Of a stretch of DNA of 64,000 bases, positions 23,822-49,538 are shown in pieces (positions within the stretch are counted from its first letter, which is position 1; each line of letters starts with the position of its first letter). The stretch spans positions 33,109 through 97,108 of the forward strand of contig JACPRZ010000012.1 of NCBI GenBank assembly GCA_016193485.1. Reading direction: 5' to 3'. The DNA is from Bacteroidota bacterium. Lineage in GTDB: Bacteria; Bacteroidota; Bacteroidia; JACPRZ01. Made by a program: the position numbers and the translations under genes. The notes beneath the pieces were generated by a model, which was not told the origin of the DNA, did no database searches, and saw nothing but the letters and a program-made list of their open reading frames with translations.

Positions 23822-24826
23822 ATGCGTAAAATAGTTATATCAATAATCCAGTTTATAGTTTCAATTTCACTGGGAGTTTTCCTTATCTGGTATGTTTACA
23901 AGGATTTAACCGGGGAACAAAGAGAGGAGATTTACCGTTCTTTTTCAGGTGCCGACTATACCTGGGTAATCTTATCCGTTATTCTCGGAATAATCAGTCA
24001 TTTTTTAAGAGCATTGCGCTGGAATTTGCTTATTGAAACTATCGGTACAAAGCCAATTCTGTTGAAAAGCACAGCCGCAGTCATGGTGGGTTACCTCGCT
24101 AACTATGCACTGCCGCGTATAGGGGAGGTAGCAAGATGCGGTGTGCTGAGCCGGTATGAAAAACTTCCTTTTGACAAACTTGTGGGTACGGTGATCATTG
24201 AACGTGCCGTGGATTTATGCATTACCCTGATCCTTACCCTGATACTTTTTATTGCTGAACTGGATGTCATCGGTAATTTTATGGCAGGATTGCTGGGCCC
24301 TTTTATAGACAAAGTACCTTCTTCATCTGCGCTTTTTTTTCTGTTCTCCGGTACAATTTTATTTTTGATTGCACTTGGATATTTCATTCTGAAACGGACA
24401 TCAGCAGGGAAAAGGGGGATCCTTTTTTTAGAGGGAATCATCCAGGGAATCCGGTCCATTACGCGTCTGAATGATAAAGGCCGGTTCATCATCTACAGCA
24501 TTCTTATCTGGTTCCTCTATTATGCGATGTTCCATATTTGCTTATTTTGCCTGCCTGAAACATCGGTGGTCCCCTTCTGGGGTGCGGTAGCCGGTTTTAT
24601 TATGGGCGGTTATGGCATCATACTGGTACAGGGAGGCATTGGCGCTTTTCCTGCACTGGTGATGGCGACATTGTCCCTTTATGGTATCCCGGGAGAATAT
24701 GGTTTTGCTTTCGGCTGGATCCTCTGGACCGCACAGACAGCGATGATCCTCGTTGCAGGAACGATTTCCATAGGATACCTGATGCTGATTTCAAAAACAA
24801 AAATTAAACAAAATGAACCGCATTGA
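23822..24826 (+). CDS. Lysylphosphatidylglycerol-synthase-TM-domain (flippase-like, UPF0104) membrane protein
   Basis: 334-aa polytopic membrane protein carrying the conserved PxRxGExxR motif (LPRIGEVARC). Confidence 0.7.
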   Translation: MRKIVISIIQFIVSISLGVFLIWYVYKDLTGEQREEIYRSFSGADYTWVILSVILGIISHFLRALRWNLLIETIGTKPILLKSTAAVMVGYLANYALPRIGEVARCGVLSRYEKLPFDKLVGTVIIERAVDLCITLILTLILFIAELDVIGNFMAGLLGPFIDKVPSSSALFFLFSGTILFLIALGYFILKRTSAGKRGILFLEGIIQGIRSITRLNDKGRFIIYSILIWFLYYAMFHICLFCLPETSVVPFWGAVAGFIMGGYGIILVQGGIGAFPALVMATLSLYGIPGEYGFAFGWILWTAQTAMILVAGTISIGYLMLISKTKIKQNEPH

Positions 24827-25304
24827 ACCGGTAATGGCAAAAATTGCCCCTTTGGATATAGTGGAAAGGTGGGTTTCGGGCTGGAAAAAGTTCCGGTTGA
24901 AAGTTGTCTTTACCAACGGATGTTTTGACATTCTGCATGCAGGGCATATCCACCTTCTTGCAGAAGCGGCTTCTTTTGGTGATAAACTTGTTGTCGGAAT
25001 CAATTCCGATCTTTCGGTACGGAAAATAAAAGGTCCCGGCCGGCCGGTAAATGATGAACGATCGCGCGGGATGGTCATCGCTTCAGTGCAGGTTACCGAT
25101 GCCCTTCTTTTCTTTGATGACGAAACACCGTATGAAATCATAAAAAGGATTCAACCCGATGTGCTTGTAAAGGGCGGTGATTATGCCGAAAATGCAATTG
25201 TGGGCGCGGATCTGGTAAGATCATGGGGGGGGGAAGTCAGAATTGTAAAATTGCTGGACGGATTTTCAACAACAGGCATGATCGGAAAGATGAAAACTCT
25301 GTAA
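24813..25304 (+). CDS. rfaE2: D-glycero-beta-D-manno-heptose 1-phosphate adenylyltransferase (RfaE domain II-type cytidylyltransferase)
   Basis: KVVFTNGCFDILHAGHIHLL nucleotidyltransferase motif. 163 aa. Confidence 0.8.
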   Translation: MNRIEPVMAKIAPLDIVERWVSGWKKFRLKVVFTNGCFDILHAGHIHLLAEAASFGDKLVVGINSDLSVRKIKGPGRPVNDERSRGMVIASVQVTDALLFFDDETPYEIIKRIQPDVLVKGGDYAENAIVGADLVRSWGGEVRIVKLLDGFSTTGMIGKMKTL

Positions 25305-25313
25305 ACGTTACCA

Positions 25314-26645
25314 ATGTTCTTAACTTTGGAAAAGTTTACAGGAACTGCTGCAGCGATGTTCAATACCGGCAATCCTTTGACCTTTATTTTCGTTGCCGGG
25401 GTTTTTATTGCCGGTTGTTACGGATCTTCCAAAATCAGCAATCGTAATCTTGCCTATTTATACCGCAAGGAAATTAACCCGATTCATCCGAAAGCGGTTA
25501 TCTATCATCTCTCCGACTCTGCCAGCCGTATCTTTCTTTCCATTGAATCAAAAGAACTGCTGTTCAGAAGGGAATATTCCGCTGAGGAATTCACAGCGGA
25601 GTTCAATGTTACGTATAAAGCATACCCATCACCCGAAGCACAGGTGATCATCGACAGCGGCACAATCAGGGTGGTGCATGCTTCAGAATTGAACATGAAT
25701 TCACGTGAACTCAGGCAGGAAAAAATTATCGCAATGGCCGATCTTAAACTGCGCAGGCCCGTAAAGTGCGTACTTGAAATTTCAGTGACCGACCTGAACC
25801 GGAATCAGGAATCTTCCGTGTATATGACGGTGGATAAAGAGAGTGCCTTTTCAAGGGAAAATTTCAGAGTAAACTCGGCCGTGAGCGGGGAACCGCTTTT
25901 CAGAAATCAGATTACTCCCGGTGAAGCAATAGCGGTAAAGTTTCCCGCAATGAAACAGGGTAAAGGAATAGTTTATTATTACAGCCGGAAGTTTCAACTT
26001 CCACACCCCCCTTTTTCCGTACACGGTTCACCTCCTTTTGAATATCGGCCCGATTCGGTTTTTTCTCTTGATCCCGACAGCCAGAACATGGTTTACCCCA
26101 GGTTAGTCCGCCCTGGTTTTTACCATTTTATAGCCGATACGACCCAAAGGGAAGGGCTTACCCTTTACCGCTTCAGCGATGAGTTCCCGCAATGCACATC
26201 ACCGGAACAACTCCTTGAAGCGATACGTTATTTCACCACGCGCCAGGAGTATAATGAACTGATGCTTGAAGCGGGAAAAAAAAAGGCGCTCGATAATTTC
26301 TGGTTGAAAATTGGCGGAAGCCAGGAACGGGCGAGGTCCCTTATCAAAAGTTATTATTCTCGCGTCCAGGATGCCAATGAATTATTTACCGCACATGCGG
26401 AAGGATGGAAAACCGACCGGGGAATGATTTACATTATTTTCGGACCGCCCGATGCCGTATACCGCTCCCTTAACACCGAGAGTTGGGTGTACGGTGAAGA
26501 GGGCTCTTTCCTCTCTTTTAATTTTCTTTTTGTAAAAGTTAAGAATCCTTTTTCCGCTAATGATTACCAGTTGCAACGAAGCCCGGTGTATAAAAATACG
26601 TGGTACAGAGCGGTGGAAGCGTGGAGGCAGGGAGTAGTGTATTAA
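25314..26645 (+). CDS. GWxTD-domain protein
   Basis: Contains GWKTDRGMIYIIFGPPD (GWxTD signature). Possible lipoprotein start at the internal MFNTGNPLTFIFVAGVFIAGC (25356). Confidence 0.65.
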   Translation: MFLTLEKFTGTAAAMFNTGNPLTFIFVAGVFIAGCYGSSKISNRNLAYLYRKEINPIHPKAVIYHLSDSASRIFLSIESKELLFRREYSAEEFTAEFNVTYKAYPSPEAQVIIDSGTIRVVHASELNMNSRELRQEKIIAMADLKLRRPVKCVLEISVTDLNRNQESSVYMTVDKESAFSRENFRVNSAVSGEPLFRNQITPGEAIAVKFPAMKQGKGIVYYYSRKFQLPHPPFSVHGSPPFEYRPDSVFSLDPDSQNMVYPRLVRPGFYHFIADTTQREGLTLYRFSDEFPQCTSPEQLLEAIRYFTTRQEYNELMLEAGKKKALDNFWLKIGGSQERARSLIKSYYSRVQDANELFTAHAEGWKTDRGMIYIIFGPPDAVYRSLNTESWVYGEEGSFLSFNFLFVKVKNPFSANDYQLQRSPVYKNTWYRAVEAWRQGVVY

Positions 26646-26656
26646 AGAAAAGAAAT

Positions 26657-27406
26657 ATGGATGACCTGCAATATATTTACGGTATCCGCCCGGTTCTTGA
26701 ATCGGTTCAGGGCGGAATGGATATTCAGAAAATTTATCTTTCACGGAAAGTGAAAGGAGAGTTGATCACCGAGATTAAGAAACTGGCGCGGGAGAGGGAA
26801 ATAGGGGTACAGGAGGTTCCGGAAGAAGTGTTCCGGAAGTTCAGGGGCAAAATCCACCAGGGGGTCGTTGCGTTGATTTCACCGGTAATATACCAGGATA
26901 TTGGAAAATATCTGCCCCAGTTATTTGAAAAGGGAATTATCCCCCTTGTGGTTGTTCTTGACCGCATCACCGATGTCCGGAATTTCGGAGCCATCATCCG
27001 CACGGCAGAATGTATGGGCGCTCATGCCGTTGTGGTTCCGTCAAAAGAAACGGCACAGATCAATGCCGATGCGGTTAAGGCCTCTGCTGGCGCCCTTTTC
27101 AGGATACCGGTTTGCAGGGCATCCGATTTATTTATAGCCACGCGGATACTTAAAGACAGCGGATTACAGATTGTTTCCTGTTCCGAAAAGGCCGGTAAAA
27201 CTTTTTATGATGTCGATTTCGGATTACCCACCGCAATTCTTTTTGGTTCGGAAGAATCGGGATTACTGCCGGCACTGGTTAAAATTTCCGATCACCACGT
27301 GAAAATCCCCATGGCAGGCCATATCGCATCGCTGAATGTATCGGTTGCGGCCGGAATCGTTTTGTTTGAAGCGATGAGGCAGCGGGAAGCAATGGGCGAG
27401 AAGTGA
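26657..27406 (+). CDS. rlmB: 23S rRNA (guanosine-2'-O)-methyltransferase RlmB (SpoU/TrmH family)
   Basis: Start at the internal MDDLQYIYGIRPV. SPOUT-class motifs (NFGAIIRTAE, LFGSEESGL). Confidence 0.85.
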   Translation: MDDLQYIYGIRPVLESVQGGMDIQKIYLSRKVKGELITEIKKLAREREIGVQEVPEEVFRKFRGKIHQGVVALISPVIYQDIGKYLPQLFEKGIIPLVVVLDRITDVRNFGAIIRTAECMGAHAVVVPSKETAQINADAVKASAGALFRIPVCRASDLFIATRILKDSGLQIVSCSEKAGKTFYDVDFGLPTAILFGSEESGLLPALVKISDHHVKIPMAGHIASLNVSVAAGIVLFEAMRQREAMGEK

Positions 27407-27416
27407 AAATGATACG

Positions 27417-27436
27417 AATCCCGATAACTATCGGAT
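27417..27436. promoter_or_regulatory. Degenerate copy of the palindromic motif ATCCCGATAA-TTATCGGGAT (ccgata.ac.tatcgg)
   Basis: Partial palindrome about 170 bp upstream of the perfect copy. Both lie in the rlmB / GT-C intergenic region. Confidence 0.4.
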
Positions 27437-27541
27437 TTATGTTGCTACCTATAAAATCAATAGTCCGGTACTTTTTTATCTCTCCCCGCAATAGCGGGGC
27501 AAAGTTCGCAAGGTTTTAAAATTTAATTCTTTGCGTGCTTG

Positions 27542-27571
27542 GCGACCCTGCCTGCCGGCAGGCAGGGTCGC
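27542..27571. other. Perfect 30-bp GC-rich palindrome gcgaccctgcctgcc|ggcaggcagggtcgc (strong hairpin; terminator or protein-binding site)
   Basis: The reverse complement equals the sequence itself over 30 nt. Located between rlmB (stop 27406) and the first GT-C gene (start 27654). Confidence 0.7.
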
Positions 27572-27586
27572 GAGAAATGAATTTTT

Positions 27587-27606
27587 ATCCCGATAATTAT
27601 CGGGAT
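27587..27606. promoter_or_regulatory. Perfect 20-bp palindrome atcccgataa|ttatcgggat, operator-like, 48 bp upstream of GT-C paralog 1
   Basis: Exact dyad symmetry, as expected for a dimeric transcription-factor binding site. A degenerate second copy lies at 27417. Confidence 0.5.
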
Positions 27607-27653
27607 TGATTTTTAAATACATAAAAATTTTTACCGGAGTATTGTAAAATGCA

Positions 27654-29615
27654 ATGATTAAAATCTCTTCAAATACGCTCACCGGTATTTTGTTGGGATG
27701 CATCCTGATTACCGGAGCAATTTTTCGGTTCTGCGGTTACTCGGATTTTCCGCTGAACGGTGATGAACTTGGCGCATTGAGCCGGCTCCGGTTTTCTTCA
27801 TTTGCGGATCTGATTGAACAGGGCGTGAAAACTGACGGGCACCCTCCTCTGGTGCTGGTTTTTCTTTTTTACTGGACGAAAATATTTGAATTATCAGAAG
27901 CGGCAATACGTTTCCCTTTTGCTTTGTGCGGTATTTTCAGCATTTATTTCCTGTACCTCATTGGCGCCTTCTGGTTTAACCGCACTACAGGTCTTCTTGC
28001 AGCAGCCGCTCTCGCCACACTGGAATTTCCTTTGATATATACGCAGATTGCGCGGCCTTATGCACCGGGTTTGCTCTTTACGCTGATGAACACCTGGTTC
28101 TGGACCAAACTTCTTTTTGATGATAAATCACAAAAAAAAAGCAGCGCTATTTTATACGGAATAACCGCTTCCCTTTGCATGCTCACTCATTACTTCAGTT
28201 TTCTTTCGGTCGTGATTGCCGGATTATCCGGGCTTCTGTTTGTTAAACGAGAAACAATAAAATATTATCTCATAGGGGGGGGAATCGCTTTTCTTCTTTT
28301 TATTCCCGCGCTGGATGTATTTTATTACCAGTTTTTTGTTGTAGGGGGATGGGGATGGCTCAGCAAACCAGAACCCGGTTTTTTTTGGAAATACCTTTTT
28401 ATTTTCTTTAACAACTCCGTTTTCCTTGCATATTTTGTCGGTACTGTTTCTCTCTCCTCCCTAGTAATAAACTCTACACGGATAAAATTTTCCCGGTTTC
28501 ATGCCATTTCCCTGCTTTGGTTCCTCCTGCCCTGTTTTATTGGTTATTATTATTCAATTTACCGGAATCCCGTACTTCAGGATAAACTCCTGTTATTCTC
28601 TTTTCCGTTTCTTCTTCTTTTTCTGTTCTCTTTTTTCCGCATTGAGGAAAACAGGTTTATTTATTCAGGAATCGTTTTAGGAGTTCTTGCTGTGTTTTCA
28701 TACAATACAGCAGGTATCAATAGTTTTTTTTCAAAACGGCATTTTGACGAGTTCACCGATGTAGCCCATAAAACCATTGAATATATTGACAAATATGGCG
28801 AACAAAACATCACGCGTACCATAAATGTTTTCGACCCATACTATATAAATTATTACTTCGACCGCCTCGGTCGCAAGGTTACATATTCCAATTATCAGAT
28901 TGGCGGTCCGGAAAATTTTCTGCGCTTTGATTCTCTATGCCGGAAAAGTTCCACTCCTTATTTTCTTTTTTCGTGGTGGGGTACATTGACTCCCTGCGAA
29001 ATTCTGCAAATAATCCGGCAATATTTTCCTTATACGGTTCATAAAGAATTTTTCGAACGTACGGAAATATATCTTTTTGCGAAGGAAAAATCCAACTCCT
29101 CGCTGCCCGATAAAATTGTATTCCGCACTCTGAATAATTTTGAGGCAAACCCTCCTATGTGGAGTACGAATGATTCTGCACAGGCCAGTTCCTTATCATG
29201 GAGTGGAACAAAAGCGGCAAAAGTCAATGCAACGTATCCTTATAGCCCAACTTTTTCGGCACAAGCAACGCAGGTACTTAAATCGGTGGATGATATTATT
29301 TATGCCGGAGTGCGGGTGCGGATGAACCGTCCGGGCAATTCCGATATAAAACTGTGCATTTCTTTTGAGGAAAAGAATGGAATATATGGGTGGCACGATA
29401 TTGCATTGAGTAACTTTGTTGATTCTGGCGATGTCTGGAGAAAGGCATTTATTCATAGCAGGGTTCCTAAACTAAAATCAAAAAACGATATTATTAAAAT
29501 ATTTGTCTGGAGTGCGGGTGGTAATGAATGTGTCCTGGATGATTTTGAAGTTTGGATTGAAGAAGGAAATCCGGTTTTGTGGGGAAAGCGCTCCGATCAT
29601 GGTATGCTTGATTAA
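27654..29615 (+). CDS. GT-C fold membrane glycosyltransferase, PMT/ArnT (GT39/GT83)-like, paralog 1, with ~250-aa C-terminal soluble domain
   Basis: 653 aa with ~11 TM helices. Loop-1 DE motif (NGDELGAL) and HPPL motif as in Dol-P-Man/undecaprenyl-P-sugar GT-C enzymes. Conserved C-terminal domain (YPYSPTFSAQA...IKIFVWS). Confidence 0.7.
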   Translation: MIKISSNTLTGILLGCILITGAIFRFCGYSDFPLNGDELGALSRLRFSSFADLIEQGVKTDGHPPLVLVFLFYWTKIFELSEAAIRFPFALCGIFSIYFLYLIGAFWFNRTTGLLAAAALATLEFPLIYTQIARPYAPGLLFTLMNTWFWTKLLFDDKSQKKSSAILYGITASLCMLTHYFSFLSVVIAGLSGLLFVKRETIKYYLIGGGIAFLLFIPALDVFYYQFFVVGGWGWLSKPEPGFFWKYLFIFFNNSVFLAYFVGTVSLSSLVINSTRIKFSRFHAISLLWFLLPCFIGYYYSIYRNPVLQDKLLLFSFPFLLLFLFSFFRIEENRFIYSGIVLGVLAVFSYNTAGINSFFSKRHFDEFTDVAHKTIEYIDKYGEQNITRTINVFDPYYINYYFDRLGRKVTYSNYQIGGPENFLRFDSLCRKSSTPYFLFSWWGTLTPCEILQIIRQYFPYTVHKEFFERTEIYLFAKEKSNSSLPDKIVFRTLNNFEANPPMWSTNDSAQASSLSWSGTKAAKVNATYPYSPTFSAQATQVLKSVDDIIYAGVRVRMNRPGNSDIKLCISFEEKNGIYGWHDIALSNFVDSGDVWRKAFIHSRVPKLKSKNDIIKIFVWSAGGNECVLDDFEVWIEEGNPVLWGKRSDHGMLD

Positions 29616-29628
29616 TCGCTGTCTGACC

Positions 29629-31596
29629 ATGAAACAATCTGTTGGAAAATCAGATAATATTATTTTATTTCTTATCCTGCTCCTGGGTGCTGGTTTGCGA
29701 TTTTACGGATTTGCCGATTTTTCCCTCAGCAATGATGAACTGAGTGCGCTTAACCGCCTTCAGTATGATACGTTCGGAGAACTGATTGAAAAGGGAGTGA
29801 AAATTGACGGACACCCGCCTCTCGTACAGGTATTTCTTTATTACTGGACAAAAATTTTCGGTTTTTCGGAAGTATCCGTACGGCTTCCGTTTATTGTGTG
29901 CGGTATTATCAGCATTTATTTCCTTTACTGCATAGGATCGTTCTGGTTCAATCCTGCAACCGGACTTCTTGCGGCTGCCGCTCTCGCATCACTTGAATAC
30001 CCGCTTATGTATACCCAGATAGCAAGACCGTATAGCCCCGGTTTGTTGTTTACCCTGATGAATACATGGTTCTGGACTAAACTCCTTTTTGATAAAGATT
30101 CACCGAAATTCAGAACGGCAGTTTTTTATGGAATTACTGGTTCCTTATGCATGGCGACCCATTATTTCAGTTTTTTATCTGCTCTGATTACGGGTCTAAC
30201 CGGCTTATTTTTCCTGAGACGAAGCATTTTTAAATATTACATGATAGGGGGGGGTATCTCATTCCTTCTTTTTATTCCTGCCCTGGGAGTATTTTACCAC
30301 CAGTTTTTCGAAATAGGCGGTTTGGGTGGACCAACGGGCTGGCTTGGAAAACCCAAACCCGATTTTTTCCGGAAGTTCCTGTTTGAATGTTTTAATAACT
30401 CAAAATTACTCACTTTTCTTGTTACTTTTGCTTCCCTGACGTCTCTTGCGGTTTATCTTAAAGAGATCAGGTTTTCAAGATTTCACTTTCTGTGTATACT
30501 TTGGTTCCTCCTGCCTTATTTTATCGGATACTATTATTCCATTTACCGAAGCGCTGTGCTGCAGGATAAACTTCTGCTTTTTTCCTTTCCTTTTCTCCTG
30601 CTCTTTTTATTTTCTTTTTTCAGAGACGGGAAAAAACGCATTGTTAAAACAGGGATCATAATATGTGCGATGGGTGTTTTTGTAATTTCAACAGTAGTCA
30701 TAAACCGGTATTTTTCCACCCAGCATTTCGACCAGTTTAATACTGTTGCCCGGAAAACAGTTGAGTACATTGACCGGTATGGCGAACAGAACATTGTTAA
30801 GACCGTTAATGTCCACGGGCCCTATTACATCAACTATTACCTGAACCGGTTGGGCCGGAAAGTTGATTATATCAGTTACCGCAATGATGCGCAGGAAAGT
30901 TTTCTGAGATTTGATTCAATATGCAGAAATAGTTCCGCTGCCTATTTCCTCTATTCCTGGGCAAGTACTTTCAGTCCATGTGAAATCATCCAGGTCATAA
31001 AGGAATATTATCCTTTTACGGTTCACAAAGAACTTTATAACCGCTCTGAAATTTACCTTTTTGGCAGAAAAGAACCGCCCGGATATGTTACTGACACCCC
31101 GTTTTTTGTATCGCTGAATGATTTTGAAAGCGGTCCTGAAAACTGGAGCCGGGATGATTCCGCTCTGACCGGAAGATATTTTTGGAGCGGGGTTAAATCT
31201 GCCAAAGTAAATTCGAAATACCCTTACAGCCCTACATTTTCAGCGCAGGCGCATAAGATTCTTCATTCGGTGGATGATATTATTTATGCCGGAGTGCGGT
31301 TCCGAATGGAGAATATCCGGGCGGATGTAAAAATCTGCATTGCTTTTGAAGAGAACAACAAAGTTTATGAATGGCACGACATGGCCTTGAACCGGTTTTC
31401 CGATTCAGCAGGAGTTTGGAAAAATGCATATATTCATTCCCGGGTTCCTGAATTAAAATCAAAAAACGACATTATTAAAATATTTGTATGGAGCATTGAC
31501 GGCAGCGAAGTTTTCCTTGATGACTTTAAAGTGTGGGTTGAAAAGGGAAATACTATCCTCTATGGCAGACGGTTGGATCACGATATTTTAGAATGA
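29629..31596 (+). CDS. GT-C fold membrane glycosyltransferase, paralog 2 (~75% identical to paralog 1)
   Basis: ORF 29503..31596. Start assigned to the internal MKQSVGKSDNIILFLILLLGAG, immediately after the paralog 1 stop. Same motif set (SNDELSAL, DGHPPL). Confidence 0.7.
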   Translation: MKQSVGKSDNIILFLILLLGAGLRFYGFADFSLSNDELSALNRLQYDTFGELIEKGVKIDGHPPLVQVFLYYWTKIFGFSEVSVRLPFIVCGIISIYFLYCIGSFWFNPATGLLAAAALASLEYPLMYTQIARPYSPGLLFTLMNTWFWTKLLFDKDSPKFRTAVFYGITGSLCMATHYFSFLSALITGLTGLFFLRRSIFKYYMIGGGISFLLFIPALGVFYHQFFEIGGLGGPTGWLGKPKPDFFRKFLFECFNNSKLLTFLVTFASLTSLAVYLKEIRFSRFHFLCILWFLLPYFIGYYYSIYRSAVLQDKLLLFSFPFLLLFLFSFFRDGKKRIVKTGIIICAMGVFVISTVVINRYFSTQHFDQFNTVARKTVEYIDRYGEQNIVKTVNVHGPYYINYYLNRLGRKVDYISYRNDAQESFLRFDSICRNSSAAYFLYSWASTFSPCEIIQVIKEYYPFTVHKELYNRSEIYLFGRKEPPGYVTDTPFFVSLNDFESGPENWSRDDSALTGRYFWSGVKSAKVNSKYPYSPTFSAQAHKILHSVDDIIYAGVRFRMENIRADVKICIAFEENNKVYEWHDMALNRFSDSAGVWKNAYIHSRVPELKSKNDIIKIFVWSIDGSEVFLDDFKVWVEKGNTILYGRRLDHDILE

Positions 31597-31629
31597 TGGC
31601 TGGAATCCGATGGATTCCGTTTCTCCAGA

Positions 31630-33690
31630 ATGTTCAGGAAAACTATAGAATATTATTCACTACAGGCAAGCATCTATTATGTTTTGTTTGCAATCATCCT
31701 TGTGGCGGGTGCGTTTATGCGTTTTTATGCAAGTTACAATTTCAGTTTTTCAAATGATGAACTCGGGTCGTTGATGCGGCTGAATTTTGCCTCGCTCCCG
31801 GAAGTGATTGAACAGGGCATTAAAAAAGGGGATACTCATCCCCCCCTTTTATTGGTTTTTTTATTCTTCTGGACGAAAATATCCGGGACTTCCGAATTCA
31901 TGGTAAGGTTGCCCTTTGCGGTTGCAGGTACTTTGGCAATTTTTTATGCATGGAGGATCGGTTTAAAATGGTTTCATCCCGCAACAGCCCTTCTTTCAGC
32001 GGCAGGAATCGCTTTTCTTGAATTTCCGCTGCATGTTTCCTATCTTATCCGTCCCTATAGCCCCGGTTTACTCTTTTTTTTAATGAATGTATATTATTGG
32101 ACCAATCTGCTTTTTGAAGAAGGCCTGCAAAAAAGGAAAACAGCAATTCTCTACGGGGTCACCGCTGCGCTATGTATGTATTCCCATTATTTCAGTTTTT
32201 TGTCCGCTTTAATTACCGGTTTAACGGGATTTATTTTCTTAAATCGGAAGAACATTAAATATTATCTATTAGGGGGATTACTGGCAATTATTCTTTACCT
32301 TCCGTCCTTTACCATCTTCTGGCATCATTTTTTTATTGCGAAAGGACTTGAAACAACAATTCCGGGCGGTGATGAATACATGGCGCTGATGTCTTCCGGT
32401 GAAACAATGTCAATCAGGTTACATTCATGGCTTCAAAAACCCACCCCCTCTTTTTTTCCTAAATTTATCTTTTATGCTTTTAATTCCTCTGTCACGGTTC
32501 TCTCGGTTACCGGAATAATTTGCCTTGTGCTCCTGTTGTTTAACCGGCAGATCATGAGGATATCAAAATTTCAAATGATCTCCCTGGCATGGTTCCTGCT
32601 TCCCTTTATTACCGGTTATTTCTATTCGGTTTACCGCAGCGCCATTCTACAGGAAAAGGTCCTGGTTTTTTCGTTTCCATTTCTTCTTTTATTCCTCTTT
32701 TCTTTTTTTAAGGATATCCGGATTAAGAATTTCACTCCGGGAATTTCATTGCTGATCAGTGGAGTTTTTTTTTGCAGTACCATTCTTGAAAAGGAATATT
32801 TTATTCCGCTCAATTTTGACCAGTTTCGCAATGCCGCCAGCCGGATAATAAAACACCTTGATGAAAGGGGTGAAAAAAATGTGACACGGACGGTAAATGT
32901 CTCGCACCGGTTTTATATTGAGCACTATCTTAAACGATTCGGAAGCGCAGTATCTTTCGCAAGTTACCGGAATGAGAGGGAGGAGAGTTTTTTACCATAT
33001 AAAGCAATTCTGCGGCAAAGTACTACCCCGTTTTTTCTTCATGCATGGACTAATTTCCAGAATCGCTGGGAAGTAATACCCATGATCCGGGAATTTTATC
33101 CCTATACAATTTCAAAGAACTTATTCTTTTGCTCTGAAGTTTATTTGTTTTCCCGTGAAAAACCCGCAAATTACGTCTCCGAGCCGTTTGTATTTTTCAG
33201 TTGTAATACGTTTGATTCGTTACCGGCTTTCTGGAGTCCTGCCGATTCGGTACGTTCCGATTCAGTTGCTTTTAATGGAAAATTCTCTGCATCGGTAGAT
33301 CCGCGGTTTCCTTTCAGCCCCACTTTTTCCTGCCATGCTGAAACTATTTTTAATTCCGTTGATGATATTCTGTACGCACGTGTAACTGCGCGGATGACAT
33401 CTGTCCGGGAAGAAGTGAAACTTTGTATTTCATTTGAGGATACAAATGGAATATATTCCTGGCATGATATACTGTTATATCACTTTATTGATTCAGCCGG
33501 TAAATGGGATAATGTCTACCTCAGTACCTTTGTTCCCCGGCTGCATTCAAAAAGCGATCACATAAGAATTTTTGTCTGGAACCTGGGCAAAGTACCGGTT
33601 CATATTGACAATTTTACCGTATGGGTTGAAAAAGGAAATCCTGTTGTTTATGGGAAACGAAAAGACCGGAACATTCTCAGTGAACAATAG
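31630..33690 (+). CDS. GT-C fold membrane glycosyltransferase, paralog 3 (more divergent)
   Basis: 686 aa with the same architecture and motifs (SNDELGSL, THPPL). The C-terminal domain is conserved. Confidence 0.7.
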   Translation: MFRKTIEYYSLQASIYYVLFAIILVAGAFMRFYASYNFSFSNDELGSLMRLNFASLPEVIEQGIKKGDTHPPLLLVFLFFWTKISGTSEFMVRLPFAVAGTLAIFYAWRIGLKWFHPATALLSAAGIAFLEFPLHVSYLIRPYSPGLLFFLMNVYYWTNLLFEEGLQKRKTAILYGVTAALCMYSHYFSFLSALITGLTGFIFLNRKNIKYYLLGGLLAIILYLPSFTIFWHHFFIAKGLETTIPGGDEYMALMSSGETMSIRLHSWLQKPTPSFFPKFIFYAFNSSVTVLSVTGIICLVLLLFNRQIMRISKFQMISLAWFLLPFITGYFYSVYRSAILQEKVLVFSFPFLLLFLFSFFKDIRIKNFTPGISLLISGVFFCSTILEKEYFIPLNFDQFRNAASRIIKHLDERGEKNVTRTVNVSHRFYIEHYLKRFGSAVSFASYRNEREESFLPYKAILRQSTTPFFLHAWTNFQNRWEVIPMIREFYPYTISKNLFFCSEVYLFSREKPANYVSEPFVFFSCNTFDSLPAFWSPADSVRSDSVAFNGKFSASVDPRFPFSPTFSCHAETIFNSVDDILYARVTARMTSVREEVKLCISFEDTNGIYSWHDILLYHFIDSAGKWDNVYLSTFVPRLHSKSDHIRIFVWNLGKVPVHIDNFTVWVEKGNPVVYGKRKDRNILSEQ

Positions 33691-33714
33691 TTTACCGTAA
33701 ATTTGCAATGTTCA

Positions 33715-33789
33715 GGGCAATTAGCTCAGTTGGTTCAGAGCACTGCTTTCACACGGCAGGGGTCGCAGGTTCAACTCCTGCATTGCCCA
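33715..33789 (+). tRNA. tRNA-Val (anticodon CAC)
   Basis: Cloverleaf by manual folding. Acceptor stem GGGCAAT/ATTGCCC, D-arm GCTC..GAGC, anticodon stem CTGCT/GGCAG with loop TTCACAC (U33, A37), T-arm GCAGG-TTCAACT-CCTGC, discriminator A. No encoded CCA. Confidence 0.8.
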
Positions 33790-33842
33790 CCTTTAAAAAA
33801 ATAAAAATCCCAAAATTTATAAATCCTCAATCTCCATTTTAT

Positions 33843-36023
33843 ATGAAAAACACATTCTATTTACCACTTATTCCGTTTATCTTATCGGGATTCTTTTGCA
33901 AAGCCCAGATATCAATAACAGGGATAAATGACACCGTAACCATTGACTTTACCGGGTTTACCGCAGCCGGGTTCGCTCCGGCACCTGCTGCAGGGCAACT
34001 CAGTTCAAATGACTGGGCTGTACGCGGATTTAGCCAGGATACCCTTCTTGATTTCGGTGAAACGGCAACTACCGGTGATTTTGCCCGCGGCATTTCAACC
34101 GGCAGTGTGAACACCGGTGGCATTTATGCTTTTGACGTTGGGGGGGGGAATGCAATTTTCGGTGTTCAGCCAACCGATAATGATTTCACACCTGGCAGTG
34201 TAACCCTGAAAATTCAGAACAATACGGGTGTACCTGTCACGGATTTTGAAATTGAATATGCAATATGGTGTTACAATGACCAGAACCGGTCAAACTCCCT
34301 CAACTTTTCGTGGTCATCGGATAACATTACGTACTCGCTGGTGCCGCCACTTAATTTTGCTACCCCTCAACCGCTTGACAGCCCCGCTTCGTGGGTTTCG
34401 ACTTATATGGCGACTCTCATCACCGGATTAAATCTTGCAAACGGTTCATATTTTTATCTGCGGTGGAGCGGCAATGATGCAGGCGGCTCCGGTTCAAGGG
34501 ATGAGTATGGGGTTGATAATATTAAGATTATTGCAGGGGCTCCTTTAGTCAACGCTGACTTCTCTGCAACAGATATTTGTATTGGAGATTTCGTTTATTT
34601 CACCGATAATTCCACAACTGTCACCGGTTCTATTATTTCATGGCAATGGTATTTCGGCAACGGTGACTCATCTTATCTTGCAAATCCTTTTTATTATTAT
34701 TCAACTTATGGTACTTATTATGTTACACTTATTGTAACTAATAATTCGGGCGATACGGACAGTGTAACAAAACCGGTAACGGTTTTCCCGGTACCTATTG
34801 CTGATTTCACCGCTGCAAATTTCTGCCAGGGTAGTCCGACTCAGTTTAACAACCTTTCCACTATCGCAAGCGGAACTATTGCCTTGTGGTCCTGGAATTT
34901 TGGCGACAGCACTTTTTCCACTACGTTGAATCCCTCGCATATTTATTCAGATACCGGGACTTTCACAGTCACCCTGACTGCAATTTCAGATAACGGATGT
35001 GCAGATTCCGTTTCATATTCCATAATTATCTACCCGGGACCAATTATAAATACTTCTGCGATGGTTATCCAGCACTCTGTGTGCAGCGGCAATAACGGTT
35101 CAATTTCAGGAATCACGGTATCCGGTACCGGACCTTTTTCTTATGAATGGGAGGACAGCAGCGGTAATGTTGCCGGAAATTCACTTGATATTGACAGTTT
35201 GAATCCGGGTATTTATTATCTTTCAGTAATGTCTTTATCATGTACATCGGGTGTTGTTACAGTCAATATCGGGGATTCCATTCCTGCACCTGCAGTGACC
35301 TTGACATCATCGGGTAATATCATCTGCGAAAACGACACAGTATTTTTTAATGCAGCGCCCGCGGGTTATGATAATTATGAATTTTTCCTGAACAGCAATT
35401 CGGTTCAATCCGGTGCAGGTAATTCATATTTCTCTTCTTCTCTTGCGGATGGGGATGAAATAGCAGTGGTATGTACTGACAACGGGTGTACTGCTCAGAG
35501 TTCACCGGTAGTTATTATGGTCAATCCGAATCCTGTTGCTGGTTTTACTTTTACAATTAGCGGTTCAACAGGCACTTTCACCAATACAACTTCAGGAGGA
35601 ACTCCCCCCCCGGTATATTCATGGGATTTCGGGGATGCTATGGGAACTTCCAATCTGTTCAACCCGGTTTATACCTATTCTTCAACCGGTTCGTATTTCG
35701 TTTGCCTGTCGGTGGATGACGGAGCAGGATGCTCCGGTATTTTCTGCGATACTGTGGATATTTCGGTCGGCATTAAAGAAAATGATTTTACGGATACCCG
35801 GTTCATTATTAAACCGGCAATGCAGGGGATTGTTATATTCTCACAAAAGGATAAAATAATCAAGGCCGAAGTAATAAACAGTGCAGGTATGAAAATTCAC
35901 ACTGCACAGGGAACTTCCGCCAATAACCTGTCCGTTCCGCTACCGGGTGCCGGTACCGGAATATATTATGTGAGGATATGGAGTCACGATGGCGAAATAA
36001 GAGCGCTGAAATTTATCCGGTGA
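33843..36023 (+). CDS. T9SS type A sorting-domain protein with PKD repeats
   Basis: ORF 33708 overlaps the tRNA. Real start at the internal MKNTFYLPLIPFILSGFFCKAQ. PKD-like repeats (WxFGDG..S.....H.Y...G.Y.V.L). C-terminal Por_Secre_tail (GIYYVRIWSHDGEIRALKFIR). Confidence 0.8.
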   Translation: MKNTFYLPLIPFILSGFFCKAQISITGINDTVTIDFTGFTAAGFAPAPAAGQLSSNDWAVRGFSQDTLLDFGETATTGDFARGISTGSVNTGGIYAFDVGGGNAIFGVQPTDNDFTPGSVTLKIQNNTGVPVTDFEIEYAIWCYNDQNRSNSLNFSWSSDNITYSLVPPLNFATPQPLDSPASWVSTYMATLITGLNLANGSYFYLRWSGNDAGGSGSRDEYGVDNIKIIAGAPLVNADFSATDICIGDFVYFTDNSTTVTGSIISWQWYFGNGDSSYLANPFYYYSTYGTYYVTLIVTNNSGDTDSVTKPVTVFPVPIADFTAANFCQGSPTQFNNLSTIASGTIALWSWNFGDSTFSTTLNPSHIYSDTGTFTVTLTAISDNGCADSVSYSIIIYPGPIINTSAMVIQHSVCSGNNGSISGITVSGTGPFSYEWEDSSGNVAGNSLDIDSLNPGIYYLSVMSLSCTSGVVTVNIGDSIPAPAVTLTSSGNIICENDTVFFNAAPAGYDNYEFFLNSNSVQSGAGNSYFSSSLADGDEIAVVCTDNGCTAQSSPVVIMVNPNPVAGFTFTISGSTGTFTNTTSGGTPPPVYSWDFGDAMGTSNLFNPVYTYSSTGSYFVCLSVDDGAGCSGIFCDTVDISVGIKENDFTDTRFIIKPAMQGIVIFSQKDKIIKAEVINSAGMKIHTAQGTSANNLSVPLPGAGTGIYYVRIWSHDGEIRALKFIR

Positions 36024-36026
36024 CTC

Positions 36027-37076
36027 TTACTGAACGATAAAAGGAATTTTTCTTATCGTTCCGTTCAATTCAACGAAGAGGATATAGGTTCCCTCCGCAT
36101 AACCCGAAACATCAAAAACGGTTGAGTAATTTCCCGTTCCCGGATGGACTCCGGTCATCTCAAGTAAACGTTGCCCCGCTGAGTTGATGCAGTTAAATTG
36201 CACCGATGATTGTCCCGTAACGTTATAATCAACCCGCACAAAGTCAATTACCGGGTTGGGAAAAAGAAGGAAAACGGGTAATTCTTTCTGTAGTTCATCG
36301 GCTCCTGCCACCGCCTTAGTATTCAGAAGGATTTTTGGAAATAAGGCCGTTCCGTTTACAGACACTAATTCAACATAAAAAACCGGAAATTTCATAGAGT
36401 CCTCATACCAGGAATAAACGGTTCGCGTTATGTTCGTAATAGAATCATCAGGCGGATTAAGGGATGTATCTGTTATGGTTTCAATCCATTTTACCCGGAG
36501 TAAACTGTCAAAAATATTACCCCCTACTTTAAGCGTGCCCCATCCGTCTGCATTGACTGCAACGGTTCCCTTCCTGTCCCAAATATAACCGTTTCCGTCA
36601 TCATAAACACAGTCAAAATTATCCGAATTAGTATAATTGAAGTTTACCGGGTAATTGAATAACCTTTCATTATTGGTGATGGAATAATTTATCTTGATAC
36701 TGCCCGATAATACCTCGCCATCAATACTGAGATTTCCACCGCTTGTTTTGTAATAAATATAATTATTGAAGGTTTTATTATATCCGGCAATCGATGACGT
36801 TGAAAAATCGTTTGCGTATGGCGTTGATGCCACCGTTTTAAATGTATATTGGGTGTCTGCTGCAGGGTTAAAAATAATTTTATTGCTGAAATCCCATACA
36901 TAACCGGTTCCGGTATTGCTGTAAACAGGTGGTGATCCTGATTCATAGCCCTGTTTGACAATCCAGATATCGCCTGTATCCGGATTATGAATAGCGGAAG
37001 TCAGTGATGGCGCCTGTGCGGAGACATTACCGGCAAGCATGACCGCTGATAAGAGGATATAGTACTTTTGTAACAT
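36027..37076 (-). CDS. T9SS C-terminal-domain secreted protein (function unknown)
   Basis: Start at the internal MLQKYYILLSAVMLAGNVSAQA (signal peptide). C-terminus EGTYILFVELNGTIRKIPFIVQ is typical of T9SS CTDs. Confidence 0.7.
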   Translation of the reverse strand: MLQKYYILLSAVMLAGNVSAQAPSLTSAIHNPDTGDIWIVKQGYESGSPPVYSNTGTGYVWDFSNKIIFNPAADTQYTFKTVASTPYANDFSTSSIAGYNKTFNNYIYYKTSGGNLSIDGEVLSGSIKINYSITNNERLFNYPVNFNYTNSDNFDCVYDDGNGYIWDRKGTVAVNADGWGTLKVGGNIFDSLLRVKWIETITDTSLNPPDDSITNITRTVYSWYEDSMKFPVFYVELVSVNGTALFPKILLNTKAVAGADELQKELPVFLLFPNPVIDFVRVDYNVTGQSSVQFNCINSAGQRLLEMTGVHPGTGNYSTVFDVSGYAEGTYILFVELNGTIRKIPFIVQ

Positions 37077-37172
37077 GGGAGTGAGATAAATAGTGAAAAA
37101 TTTTTTACAAATATAGCAATCTGAACCATATCGCTGATGAATGCTAAAGCATTTTCTGTTGATCTGGCTGCA

Positions 37173-38198
37173 ATGGCAGATACGATCACTCTCCAACGGG
37201 TCGTAAATTTCCTGAAATTGCTTTTTTCGTTCTATTTTTCGCGGCTGGCGGGTAAATCATTTGCGGCAGGAACTCCTTTTGCCGTTTCCATTGAGCCGAC
37301 AACCTCCTGCAATTTAAGATGCCCGGAATGTGTAAGCGGGTTGCGTTCTTTTACACGTCCGACCGGCATGATGAATATGGAAATGTACAGGAAAATAATG
37401 GATGAACTATCTCCTCATTTATTTTATCTTATTCTCTATTTCCAGGGCGAACCCTATCTTAACCTGAATTTTTTTGAGATGGTGAAATATGCAGGAAAGA
37501 AAAAGATTTACGTAGCAACTTCTACTAATGCTCATTATCTTGATGATGAGTATGCGCGGTTGACTGTTGAATCGGGATTGAACAGGATAATTATTTCGCT
37601 GGATGGCGCATCACAGGAATCGTACGAAAAATACCGCATCGGTGGTGACTTTGAAAAAGTGATTGCGGGAATTAAAAACTTAGTTGTGTGGAAAAACAAA
37701 CTCAAAAAACACACACCGAGGATCATTCTTCAATTTCTTGTTTTCAGGCATAATGAGGAAGAAGTTCCGGTCATTAAATCGCTCGGTAAGGAACTTGGAG
37801 TTGATGATGTATGGATAAAAACGGCACAGGTGTATGATTATGAAAACGGGAATCCATTGATTCCTTCCAATGAAAAAAATTCACGGTACAAAAGAAAAAA
37901 GGACGGAACTTATGATCTGAAGTATTCATCTCCCCCCTTTGGCGGATCCCGATATCTATCGGGGGGGGGCCATTGCTGGAAGATGTGGCATTCCTGCGTG
38001 ATTACCTGGGACGGAAGGGTAGTACCATGTTGCTTTGACAAGGATGCACGTCATCAACTCGGAACTTTGAAAGAAAAATATTTTAGGGAGATTTGGCGAA
38101 GTCCGGAGTACAATAACTTTCGCAGCCGGATTCTTCAAAAAAGAAGGGAAATAGATATATGTAAAAATTGTTCCGAAGGGACTAAGGTGTGGATATGA
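37173..38198 (+). CDS. Radical SAM / SPASM-domain enzyme (maturase-like)
   Basis: CNLRCPEC (CxxxCxxC) radical SAM cluster motif. C-terminal Cys-rich region (CW..HSCVITWDGRVVPCCFD...CKNC) is typical of SPASM/twitch auxiliary clusters. Start assumed at the internal MADTITLQ. Confidence 0.75.
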   Translation: MADTITLQRVVNFLKLLFSFYFSRLAGKSFAAGTPFAVSIEPTTSCNLRCPECVSGLRSFTRPTGMMNMEMYRKIMDELSPHLFYLILYFQGEPYLNLNFFEMVKYAGKKKIYVATSTNAHYLDDEYARLTVESGLNRIIISLDGASQESYEKYRIGGDFEKVIAGIKNLVVWKNKLKKHTPRIILQFLVFRHNEEEVPVIKSLGKELGVDDVWIKTAQVYDYENGNPLIPSNEKNSRYKRKKDGTYDLKYSSPPFGGSRYLSGGGHCWKMWHSCVITWDGRVVPCCFDKDARHQLGTLKEKYFREIWRSPEYNNFRSRILQKRREIDICKNCSEGTKVWI

Positions 38199-42978: not shown

Positions 42979-43012
42979 TTTGTATATTTGCATTCAAAAT
43001 GCAAATATACAA
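42979..43012. promoter_or_regulatory. AT-rich perfect inverted repeat tttgtatatttgcat-tcaaa-atgcaaatatacaa just upstream of the AAA/DUF4143 gene
   Basis: 14-bp perfect arms with a 5-nt spacer. Overlaps the TTG-initiated 5' extension of ORF 42988; the true ATG is at 43024. Confidence 0.4.
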
Positions 43013-43023
43013 GTATTAATAGC

Positions 43024-44220: not shown

Positions 44221-44353
44221 CAGGGATTGCGTTTTTGTTGATATTTTATCTCATTTATTTGACTACTTTTGACGGACAATAATGATTTTTTTAGCGGAAC
44301 AGCAAAAGTAAAAGTGCCAAATCTTCATACCCTTTTTTATTAACCTTGTTTCA

Positions 44354-44785
44354 ATGGCGGATGTTCACGACAGGGAAACGAGAAGTTACAATATGAGCCA
44401 AATCAAAGGCAAAAATACAAAGCCGGAGATTTTGGTAAGAAAATTTCTTTTTGCAAGGGGATTCCGTTATAAATTGCATGATAAAAAACTTCCGGGTAAA
44501 CCGGACCTGGTTTTTCCAAAGCTTAAAACGGTATTATTCATTCATGGGTGTTTTTGGCACGGACATGAAAATTGTAAATACTTTATTATTCCAAAAACCA
44601 GAACTGACTGGTGGTTGAAGAAAATCCGGAGTAATAAACAACGAGATGTGGATAACTATTTAAAAATAAGTAAAGAAAAATGGAGGGTTTTAACTATCTT
44701 TGAATGCGAATTGAAAAGTGACAAACGTCAAACAACTCTCAATAGGATATTAAAACGTCTGAAAAGAATACATGAAGCAGTTTAA
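44354..44785 (+). CDS. vsr: Very-short-patch-repair endonuclease (T/G mismatch-specific)
   Basis: TKPEILVRKFLFARGFRY...LPGKPDLVFPKLKTVLFIHGCFWHGH...WRVLTIFECEL matches the Vsr family. Overlaps dcm by 14 nt. Confidence 0.85.
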   Translation: MADVHDRETRSYNMSQIKGKNTKPEILVRKFLFARGFRYKLHDKKLPGKPDLVFPKLKTVLFIHGCFWHGHENCKYFIIPKTRTDWWLKKIRSNKQRDVDNYLKISKEKWRVLTIFECELKSDKRQTTLNRILKRLKRIHEAV

Positions 44786-49362: not shown

Positions 49363-49538
49363 AATATTAAAATTTGAATTTATATTTTACTGCACGCAAC
49401 ATCTCATTATCAATTGTATTTATATAAAAGGGAAATTTATATTCATCCAAGCGTTTTATATATTCCCGCAACAAGATTTAATAATTCGTGCTGATTTTGA
49501 ATTGTAATTGGTATTTTCATGGAAAATAATTTTTGGTT

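Follow-up and report, generated by a model that had tools for sequence, protein, structure and literature searches.

Three consecutive genes on the plus strand of the window, the whole 64-kb stretch of DNA (64,000 nucleotides) analyzed here, encode membrane proteins designated P1, P2 and P3. We propose, with a probability of roughly 0.55, that they are old, lineage-specific triplicates of a GT-C transferase that uses polyprenyl-phosphate sugars and decorates one envelope glycan in the periplasm. The proposal builds on the observed paralogy, fold, motifs, domain homology, synteny and conservation pattern. P1-P3 represent a variant of a known enzyme class and do not amount to a new kind of system. 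Most bacterial envelope glycans are built or decorated by GT-C enzymes, which in environmental Bacteroidota have received almost no study.

Three old tandem paralogues

P1 spans 27654..29615 (653 aa; NCBI MBI2966694.1), P2 spans 29629..31596 (655 aa; MBI2966695.1) and P3 spans 31630..33690 (686 aa; MBI2966696.1), all on the plus strand and with one architecture, as the first-pass annotation had described. Each was called from its open reading frame and a Pfam PMT_2 match, and P1 also from an AlphaFold (AF2) model and Foldseek. P2 starts at the ATG at 29629, in agreement with the NCBI protein length and the alignment of homologues; a length of 697 aa is reached only if an overlapping TTG at 29503 is taken as the start. 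The gaps of 13 nt (P1-P2) and 33 nt (P2-P3) fit a single transcription unit, in which the three genes would be co-transcribed. Ahead of P1 lies a 247-nt spacer (27407..27653, +) that holds the palindrome ATCCCGATAAnTATCGGGAT twice (27418-27437 and 27587-27606, the second copy followed by a T-run) as well as a 30-nt perfect palindrome at 27542-27571. Its probable role is to terminate rlmB transcription and to control the three-gene unit. A tRNA-Val gene (CAC; 33715..33791, +), 24 nt past the P3 stop, forms the downstream boundary.

P1 and P2 are 62% identical as proteins and 67% as DNA, lower than the ~75% first reported, and P3 is indeed the most diverged paralogue, with 45-48% identity to the other two. 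P3 also has a 25-aa insertion in the loop following the invariant G232, which is presumably periplasmic. The long near-identical DNA stretches attributed to P1 and P2 are absent: exact identity never runs beyond 33 nt, the strongest repeat covers 49 nt at 92%, and identity stays at or below 80% in every 99-nt window. At four-fold degenerate sites the paralogues are 0.29-0.34 identical, near the random value of 0.25, and because synonymous sites are thus saturated the triplication is judged old. Synonymous identity is slightly higher in the 3′ part of the P1-P2 pair (0.45, n=33), which leaves some room for old gene conversion, while pairs involving P3 gave no sign of conversion at synonymous sites. 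The G8 run in the G-G-G codons of P1 (28275..28282, +) does recur at the homologous I-G-G-G-I codons of P2 (30247-30254), but it is not specific to this locus, since such runs are in excess across the window: 15 G/C runs of at least 8 were counted where ~0.4 would be expected, alongside a ~5-fold over-use of the GGG-GGG codon pair.

Each of the 85 other Bacteroidota loci examined carries one copy of the family, so the triplication is lineage-specific. In a neighbor-joining tree P1 and P2 were monophyletic in 200/200 bootstraps, as was the trio of P1, P2 and P3, making them true paralogues. All of the ~240 homologues listed come from MAGs or metagenomes, and judging from these sequences the family has so far been seen only in uncultured Bacteroidota.

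A PMT_2-type GT-C membrane core

That these proteins resemble GT-C enzymes of the PMT/ArnT kind was borne out by both profile and structure searches. Pfam PMT_2 (PF13231) matches each at about residues 62-226 with E-values of 1e-10 to 2e-15, and the scores of 57.7 bits for P1 (E 2.2e-15), 56.3 for P2 and 42.3 for P3 all exceed the gathering cutoff of 26.1. NCBI labels the three as "glycosyltransferase family 39 protein". The AF2 model of P1 (pLDDT 91.5, pTM 0.89) consists of a membrane core (aa 1-360, nt 27654-28733, +) and two periplasmic domains. Foldseek matched the core, at probability 1.00, to ALG12 (E 1e-6), Pmt4, ArnT (5ezm/5f15), STT3/PglB, EmbA-C and AftD. The expected ~11 TM helices per protein agree with the AF2 helices and the hydropathy profile. 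We take P1-P3 to be glycosyltransferases of the PMT_2-type GT-C fold that presumably use polyprenyl-phosphate-sugar donors.

The two motifs named in the first-pass annotation are present in all three paralogues. The loop-1 DE motif is encoded in P1 at 27762..27767 (+; D37 and E38) and is invariant in 42/42 aligned family members, and the D-x-H-P-P-L motif occupies P1 residues 61-66. D37, E38, D61 and H63 (P1 numbering) are invariant across the 42 members, P2 and P3 included. By analogy with established GT-C enzymes, D37 and E38 would be catalytic.

Tandem duplicates in one apparent operon might also be redundant, with one active copy and two drifting toward loss, but we think this very improbable. 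The reading frames are intact in all three genes, and P1, P2 and P3 each keep 16/16 of the residues that are invariant in the family alignment. That the proteins remain 45-62% identical although synonymous sites are saturated indicates long purifying selection on each copy.

A family-wide C-terminal module with a lectin-like fold

A conserved soluble C-terminal region exists as proposed, although it measures ~290 aa rather than ~250 and comprises two domains instead of one. In P1 these are a periplasmic alpha/beta domain (aa 361-484, nt 28734-29105, +; from AF2) and a CBM-like beta-sandwich (aa 485-653, nt 29106-29612, +; from AF2 and Foldseek). Modeled alone, the C-terminal domain forms a beta-jelly-roll with a pLDDT of 93.6 and resembles solved carbohydrate-binding modules of families CBM16 (2zew/2zex, TMt 0.63-0.65) and CBM22 (4xup, 0.61) at E ~1e-5; the overall TM range of 0.59-0.65 for these families marks a moderate likeness (TM ~0.6, rmsd ~4.5 Å). 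Binary-toxin receptor-binding domains were also among the fold matches. CBM-like beta-sandwiches can bind proteins as well.

P1-P3 themselves have no match to Pfam CBM_4_9. The family member P0156 scores 25.6 bits, just under the cutoff of 25.9, and P0292 scores 38 bits over the very segment that the domain profile matches at E 4e-30; through these two proteins, sequence comparison suggests that the C-terminal domain is linked to CBM_4_9 by transitive homology. The beta-sandwich has three nearly invariant tryptophans (W580, W595 and W619 in P1), which appear compatible with carbohydrate binding while not being diagnostic of it.

The first-pass annotation treated the extra domain as a feature of the triplication and as a sign of diversified acceptor specificity. 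Neither idea was supported. Single-copy orthologues carry the module too, so it is family-wide and not tied to triplication. The beta-sandwich is also unusually conserved among the paralogues: pairwise identities are 0.62, 0.45 and 0.48, as compared with 0.38±0.11 and 0.25±0.05 for orthologue pairs of matching TM-core identity; in the TM-identity bin 0.45-0.52 the highest value among 98 pairs is 0.39. The paralogue domains are thus ~2-4 SD more identical than those of orthologues with equal core identity. This contrast points to a ligand shared by the three beta-sandwiches, as far as sequences can tell, and not to diversified acceptor domains. As the domain evolves quickly between species and is similar among paralogues, P1-P3 most likely dock on one glycan, and the contrast suggests a rule by which the surface glycan of the organism itself is what the module recognizes.

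The combined alpha/beta and CBM_4_9-like module has no Pfam model and is found in 4,589 cluster representatives, and it merits its own domain family definition. Four or more unrelated polytopic scaffolds carry it: the PMT_2 type; the YfhO type (P0290, and P0301, which scores 32.6 bits against Pfam YfhO, above its threshold); an LA_3751-like type (hhalign probability 97%); and a further type, a 708-aa protein in L007. It is also found in tandem within TM-anchored proteins that lack a polytopic domain. In 12 related loci (two of them the same contig) a second module-bearing membrane protein adjoins the family member. We speculate, with low expectation, that the module marks an unrecognized periplasmic glycan-tailoring toolkit of uncultured Bacteroidota, in which different GT-C cores would be addressed to one species-specific envelope glycan and P1-P3 would add three distinct branches. 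The target of such a toolkit could be a protein O-glycan or a glycolipid that anchors T9SS cargo.

Genomic context and candidate acceptors

In related loci the gene order is usually GWxTD, RlmB, GT-C, and the window follows it, with genes for a GWxTD-domain protein (25314-26645, +) and the 23S rRNA 2′-O-methyltransferase RlmB (26600-27406, +), both identified with Pfam/NCBIfam, as conserved upstream neighbors. Since the neighbors of family members are mostly housekeeping genes, synteny is uninformative on the substrate.

One alternative is that P1-P3 are protein O-glycosyltransferases in the sense of PMT that pass hexose from polyprenyl-phosphate-hexose straight to Ser/Thr residues of proteins located in the periplasm or secreted, which could include T9SS cargo or the substrates of the O-glycosylation system found across the Bacteroidota phylum. 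PMT_2 membership, a loop-1 DE motif as in PMTs and the presence of Pmt4 among the best fold matches speak for it. The transferase and ligase for the O-glycan of this phylum are key periplasmic steps that are still unassigned: a 2025 review describes the core-glycan transferase and the ligase as undiscovered and suggests PMT homologues as a place to look (PMC12871550). Against this, a July 2026 preprint proposes YfhO, from a different family, as that transferase (10.64898/2026.07.27.740950), and among the ~240 homologues listed there is no named one from the cultured species that define the system. P1-P3 lack, by Pfam, both MIR and PMT_4TMC, and their C-terminal domain resembles glycan-binding CBMs. 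The link to the T9SS cargo genes just downstream of P3, which the first-pass annotation offered as possible substrates, comes from their adjacency in this window. P3 is followed first by the tRNA-Val gene and then by the PKD/T9SS gene, which actually begins near 33843, and across 85 orthologous loci no T9SS cargo gene is a conserved neighbor. A PorZ gene lies directly 3′ of a family member in three loci of one clade, the only hint of a cargo link, and the link is weak. Together, this makes a PMT-like role unlikely.

A second alternative holds that P1-P3 are ArnT-like and transfer a sugar or amino sugar from undecaprenyl phosphate to lipid A phosphates or the LPS core, with triplication providing different substituents. 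ArnT is among the top fold matches (5ezm/5f15, TMt ~0.5), and it, too, carries an alpha/beta domain at its periplasmic C terminus. JGI annotates some of the homologues as "Ara4N transferase-like", and the window holds LPS-related genes, namely an rfaE domain II ADP-heptose gene (24813-25304) and LptC (8299-8859). In sequence searches, however, phmmer against PDB sequences gave nothing, a profile search reached E 0.81 over 45 residues, and the NCBIfam ArnT model was unmatched at E<=1. Clear ArnT orthology with arn genes alongside, named at the outset as the finding that would overturn the first view, was not seen within the window: arnBCADEF-type genes are absent from the 64 kb, and none is conserved in 85 related loci. 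Neither the rfaE gene nor the flippase-like genes recur as conserved neighbors, and ArnT lacks the CBM-like domain. On this balance an ArnT-like role seems doubtful to us.

A model for periplasmic glycan decoration

We return to the decoration of one envelope glycan as the preferred reading; its donor, acceptor and topology of catalysis are modeled on ArnT, PMT, YfhO and EmbC. In the cytoplasm, a GT2 enzyme with its gene elsewhere would place a sugar on undecaprenyl phosphate, and flipping would bring the lipid-linked sugar to the periplasmic face. On that side the GT-C core, with its putative catalytic D-E pair in the first periplasmic loop, would move the sugar to an acceptor held by the lectin-like C-terminal module. 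P1-P3 most likely dock on the same species-specific envelope glycan, whether LPS O-chain or core, capsule, or a protein-linked glycan, and would be distinguished by which sugar they add or which position they modify. If this is true, the family and its portable lectin-like module provide a handle on a periplasmic glycan-tailoring step.

Comparison with known systems

ArnT (GT83; Cupriavidus metallidurans 5EZM/5F15) shares with P1-P3 the GT-C fold, the PMT_2 Pfam family, an acidic residue in periplasmic loop 1 and, past the last TM helix, an alpha/beta domain on the periplasmic side, and both are presumed to use undecaprenyl-phosphate-monosaccharide donors. The two are not significantly similar in sequence (E 0.81), no arn genes lie near P1-P3, ArnT has 13 TM helices versus ~11, and only P1-P3 have the extra beta-sandwich. 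ArnT acts on lipid A, an acceptor that the window does not support for P1-P3.

Pmt1/2/4 (GT39) and actinobacterial Pmt have the same loop-1 DE motif, ~11 TM helices and GT-C fold. P1-P3 differ in lacking the loop-5 MIR domain and PMT_4TMC; their soluble module is C-terminal and CBM-like, and no protein acceptor is indicated. PMT_2 was the only Pfam match on P1-P3, without the PMT N-terminal domain PF02366, for which two distant family members carry a precomputed match.

YfhO-type GT-C proteins, which work with a CsbB/GtrB-like GT2 and a flippase, would decorate an existing polymer in the periplasm from undecaprenyl-phosphate sugars, as we propose for P1-P3, and some share the C-terminal module (P0290, P0301). 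Their membrane-domain family differs, and the P1-P3 family has no partner GT2 or flippase nearby. As for a three-component GtrA/GtrB/GT-C system, a co-located GtrB/ArnC-like GT2 and a small GtrA flippase were found neither in the 64-kb window nor as conserved neighbors of the orthologues (85 loci).

The mycobacterial GT-C arabinosyltransferases EmbC/EmbB and AftD have no detectable sequence homology to P1-P3 and belong to another phylum; an Emb protein, at ~1,100 aa, is far longer than any of the three, and nothing here implies the decaprenyl-phosphate-arabinose donor that Emb enzymes use. Like P1-P3, they combine a polytopic GT-C core with a lectin-like CBM domain. In these enzymes the periplasmic carbohydrate-binding domain holds the growing glycan acceptor, the same working logic as we propose here, and embCAB sets a precedent for tandem GT-C paralogues, in that case with distinct specificities.

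An old tandem array of PMT_2-type genes

The first-pass annotation described three tandem paralogous genes of ~650–700 aa, and three ORFs on the + strand fill positions 27654–33690. P1 (27654–29615, 653 aa) is followed after 13 nt by P2 (29629–31596, 655 aa from its ATG; mechanical ORF calling starts it at an overlapping TTG, 29503), and after a further 33 nt by P3 (31630–33690, 686 aa). On this 164-kb MAG contig, NCBI lists them as MBI2966694.1 (P1) to MBI2966696.1, each named 'glycosyltransferase family 39 protein [Bacteroidota bacterium]'. Aligned globally, the proteins are 62% (P1-P2), 45% (P1-P3) and 48% (P2-P3) identical (67%, 61% and 60% for DNA). The third paralogue is therefore more diverged, as first described, and the ~75% originally given for P1 and P2 was too high. 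Nor do P1 and P2 share the long near-identical DNA that was reported, as their longest exact match is 33 nt and no extended repeat betters one of 49 nt with 92% identity (29463–29511 against 31444–31492).

None of the 99-nt codon-aligned windows exceeds 80% identity between P1 and P2. At third positions of conserved four-fold codons in the membrane core, 0.29–0.34 are identical against 0.25 at random, so synonymous sites are saturated and the duplications are old. Together these measurements rule out recent duplication or gene conversion. A phylogeny across related genomes, proposed initially as a check, recovered P1 with P2 in 200/200 neighbour-joining bootstraps and all three copies as a clade in 200/200, with the nearest outside sequence farther away than every paralogue pair. 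Nothing closely related to the array turned up in a scan of the JGI metagenome collection, where the best match was partial and 47% identical. This monophyly, the distant nearest outsider and the result of the metagenome scan point to an old, lineage-specific triplication, with each copy kept under purifying selection.

GT-C core and C-terminal module

All three proteins matched Pfam PMT_2 above threshold at residues ~62–226, the outcome of an HMM search that had been suggested at the outset. Pfam returned no second family for P1, P2 or P3 above E = 0.01, leaving the tail unrecognised, and NCBIfam gave only a negligible match (18 bits against a cutoff of 900). In a 42-sequence family alignment, the invariant residues (P1 numbering) are R25, D37, E38, D61, H63, F89, R134, Y136, G139, H179, P218, G232, P239, Y300, S301 and F315. 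D37 and E38 form the loop-1 DE motif noted previously, and P1, P2 and P3 each retain every invariant residue; that they are decaying duplicates is very improbable. Divergence among the three is distributed evenly across domains. What most clearly sets one paralogue apart is an insertion of 25 aa in P3, in the loop after G232.

The AlphaFold2 model of P1 (pLDDT 91.5, pTM 0.89) has a helical membrane core to residue ~355, in which loop 1 contributes two juxtamembrane helices; model and hydropathy agree with the expected ~11 TM helices. The conserved C-terminal region described earlier is present, but it is not one domain: structure prediction resolves an alpha/beta domain (~361–480) and then a beta-sandwich (~485–640). 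Foldseek against the PDB matched the core to the GT-C enzymes ALG12, Pmt4, ArnT, STT3/AglB/PglB, EmbA-C, AftD and AftB. Sequence searches against PDB chains returned nothing significant, and neither these nor NCBIfam support orthology to ArnT. A related reading, that P1, P2 and P3 modify lipid A or core in the manner of ArnT, is supported by neither sequence nor context and we consider it unlikely.

Modelled alone (pLDDT 93.6), the beta-sandwich matched the folds of CBM16, CBM22, an alginate-binding CBM and a binary-toxin receptor-binding domain, with TM of ~0.55–0.65. The family member P0156 scored 25.6 bits on CBM_4_9 (cutoff 25.9). P0292, an unrelated protein, matched the tail profile at E 4e-30 and CBM_4_9 at 38 bits over the same stretch. 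Based on these scores, the tail is best described as a putative divergent CBM_4_9-type module.

A portable module on several membrane scaffolds

Querying a word index with the C-terminal domain alignment yielded a single fragment. At E≤1e-3, an exhaustive search with the beta-sandwich profile retrieved 4,589 cluster representatives, of which 2,255 reach E≤1e-10. The module lies at the C-terminus of YfhO-type proteins, including P0301 (Pfam YfhO 32.6 bits, threshold 28.5) and P0290, which scores below threshold (23.1 bits) and, judged by eye, has the complete module of alpha/beta domain and sandwich. An LA_3751-like polytopic scaffold carries one to three copies (three in P0199; L001 6841–8577 is a module-bearing example at 97% hhalign probability). 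Proteins of ~750 aa, such as P0202, combine tandem modules with just one hydrophobic segment, at the N-terminus, and a further C-terminal part of ~400 aa. In locus L007, the gene immediately upstream of the family member encodes a further polytopic protein, of 708 aa, that also carries the module (L007 5304–7430); other module-bearing genes in related loci include L080 8114–10903 and L082 3–1889. The beta-sandwich is a portable CBM-like module for which a Pfam model and a domain-family definition are still absent. As a second module-bearing membrane protein on another scaffold adjoins the PMT_2-type gene in 12 related loci (two of them, L001 and L002, being one contig), arrays of module-bearing GT-C-like enzymes are a recurring theme. 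The array in the window differs in that it arose through duplication of one scaffold.

Among interspecies pairs with 45–52% core identity (n = 98), beta-sandwich identity is 25 ± 5% with a maximum of 39%, whereas P1-P3 and P2-P3, at 48–49% core identity, reach 45–48%. At 60–70% core identity, the interspecies value is 38 ± 11%, against 62% for P1-P2. Synonymous identity in the beta-sandwich region is not raised for pairs involving P3, which argues that their similarity reflects selection and not gene conversion. Judged from these comparisons, the module evolves fast between species and is held similar within this genome. Such a pattern would be expected if all three proteins recognise one organism-specific ligand.

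Distribution and gene neighbourhood

Full-length homologues of ~640 aa with 30–42% identity are numerous. Among the matches listed (two lists of 120), every named homologue is of Bacteroidota MAG or metagenome origin, and none is from a cultured organism. When one genome per GTDB species was scanned, relatives turned up in 477 stretches, of which the best 80 are all Bacteroidota MAGs. We compared those 80 and five loci from protein look-ups with the window. The family is single copy in the compared loci (an ORF cluster of 88 members from 86 sources), with three only in the window. The paralogue array is real, and the family is an uncharacterised one of Bacteroidota-specific GT-C enzymes.

The conserved gene order is RmuC - GWxTD - RlmB - GT-C, kept across distant Bacteroidota MAGs (for example L004 7960–11944, L038 and L044) and sometimes preceded by an Omp85-family gene. 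RlmB, a 23S rRNA 2'-O-methyltransferase, is directly upstream of the GT-C gene in at least ~50 loci, and the GWxTD-domain gene adjoins RlmB in at least ~30; both counts are minima, as many of the contigs are truncated. Beyond these genes, the neighbours are housekeeping genes that differ between clades (YbeY, MnmG, RecO, L19, GdhA). Neither these nor the conserved genes are informative about substrate or function, and a literature search for GWxTD found no paper in the library covered. Neither the 64-kb window nor the set of conserved neighbours was found to include a polyprenyl-phosphate GT2, a GtrA-like flippase or an arn gene.

T9SS cargo was also put forward as a possible acceptor; cargo genes, however, are not conserved neighbours in related loci. 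A tRNA-Val (CAC) gene (33715–33791) begins 24 nt past the P3 stop codon. The mechanical PKD/T9SS ORF at 33708–36023 overlaps and reads through it, so this protein most likely starts at an ATG near 33843 (MKNTFYLPL..., a signal peptide). The intervening tRNA and the spurious N-terminal extension weaken the case for an operon with the PKD gene. The only hint of a T9SS connection comes from one clade of Flavobacteriales-like MAGs, where three loci (L006, L007 and L019) have a PorZ homologue immediately downstream of the GT-C gene (for example L007 10055–12367). PorZ is a component of the T9SS attachment complex and binds anchoring LPS in P. gingivalis. Farther downstream in the window, two T9SS cargo genes flank a radical SAM/SPASM gene (37137–38198), whose best NCBIfam matches are SPASM maturases, all far below cutoffs. 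Its start is overlapped by the ORF of a T9SS-tail protein (36027–37196, − strand, from a TTG), a protein that probably begins at a Met within this ORF, ahead of the signal peptide (MLQKYYILLSAV...).

Homopolymer runs, palindromes and a low-GC stretch

The G8 run shared by P1 (28275–28282) and P2 (30247–30254) at the same codons, ATA GGG GGG GGA/T ATC, is real and homologous, but it is not specific to the locus. The window holds 15 G or C runs of ≥8 nt against ~0.4 expected, a ~40-fold enrichment that extends to housekeeping genes and rules out phase variation through the shared G8 as a locus-specific feature. On the + strand, G runs start at 14771, 21055, 25225, 28275, 30247, 34140, 37961, 39136, 40528, 40981, 41662 and 51402, and C runs at 35604, 57735 and 62146. 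This 12 to 3 ratio holds whatever the gene orientation and roughly tracks the sign of cumulative GC skew. Run lengths are bimodal (25, 8, 4, 12 and 3 runs of 5, 6, 7, 8 and 9 nt), whereas in 1.35 Mb of other Bacteroidota loci they fall steadily (436, 73, 10, 6 and 1). The excess is of exactly 8–9 nt; every run falls within a reading frame that is intact, where it encodes Gly-Gly(-Gly) or Pro-Pro(-Pro), and GGG-GGG encodes Gly-Gly 14 times against ~3 expected. A strand-polar motif (KOPS-like), mutational bias or contingency tracts could account for it.

The spacer upstream of P1 contains two copies of the palindrome ATCCCGATAAnTATCGGGAT 169 bp apart (27418–27437 and 27587–27606), with the 30-nt perfect palindrome GCGACCCTGCCTGCCGGCAGGCAGGGTCGC (27542–27571) between them. 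A further copy of ATCCCGATAAnTATCGGGAT lies inside the radical SAM gene (37947–37964), and the window has six strand-matches against 0.2 expected. These palindromes may serve as operators or terminators, or may belong to a small repeat element.

Elsewhere, positions 44000–50000 have a GC content of 0.33–0.36, compared to ~0.43 in the rest of the window. This stretch encodes a C-5 cytosine DNA methylase (44772–46010), a DUF6339 protein (45988–46728) and two proteins without a Pfam match (46728–47546 and 47533–49362), is preceded by an AAA_14/DUF4143 ATPase (42988–44220) and looks like a restriction-modification or defence island.

Proposed function

What makes PMT-like protein O-glycosylation by P1, P2 and P3 attractive is that neither the transferase nor the ligase for the Bacteroidota O-glycan has yet been assigned (PMC12871550); YfhO was proposed as that transferase in a July 2026 preprint (10.64898/2026.07.27.740950). 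Against this, the family was not seen, among the matches listed, in the cultured species that define the O-glycosylation system, and we hold this role to be improbable.

We favor periplasmic decoration of an envelope glycan, at a probability of roughly 0.55, in which each paralogue would have its own sugar to add, or its own site of action, on a shared polymer. Going by what is known of GT-C enzymes such as ArnT, PMT, STT3, Emb and YfhO, the loop-1 DE pair of P1, P2 and P3 would act at the periplasmic face, on a sugar donor linked to polyprenyl phosphate, and the lectin-like C-terminal domain would present the glycan acceptor. Our preference for envelope glycan decoration draws on this knowledge of GT-C enzymes and on EmbC which, as cited in PMC11127046, is a precedent for a lectin-like C-terminal domain presenting a glycan acceptor.
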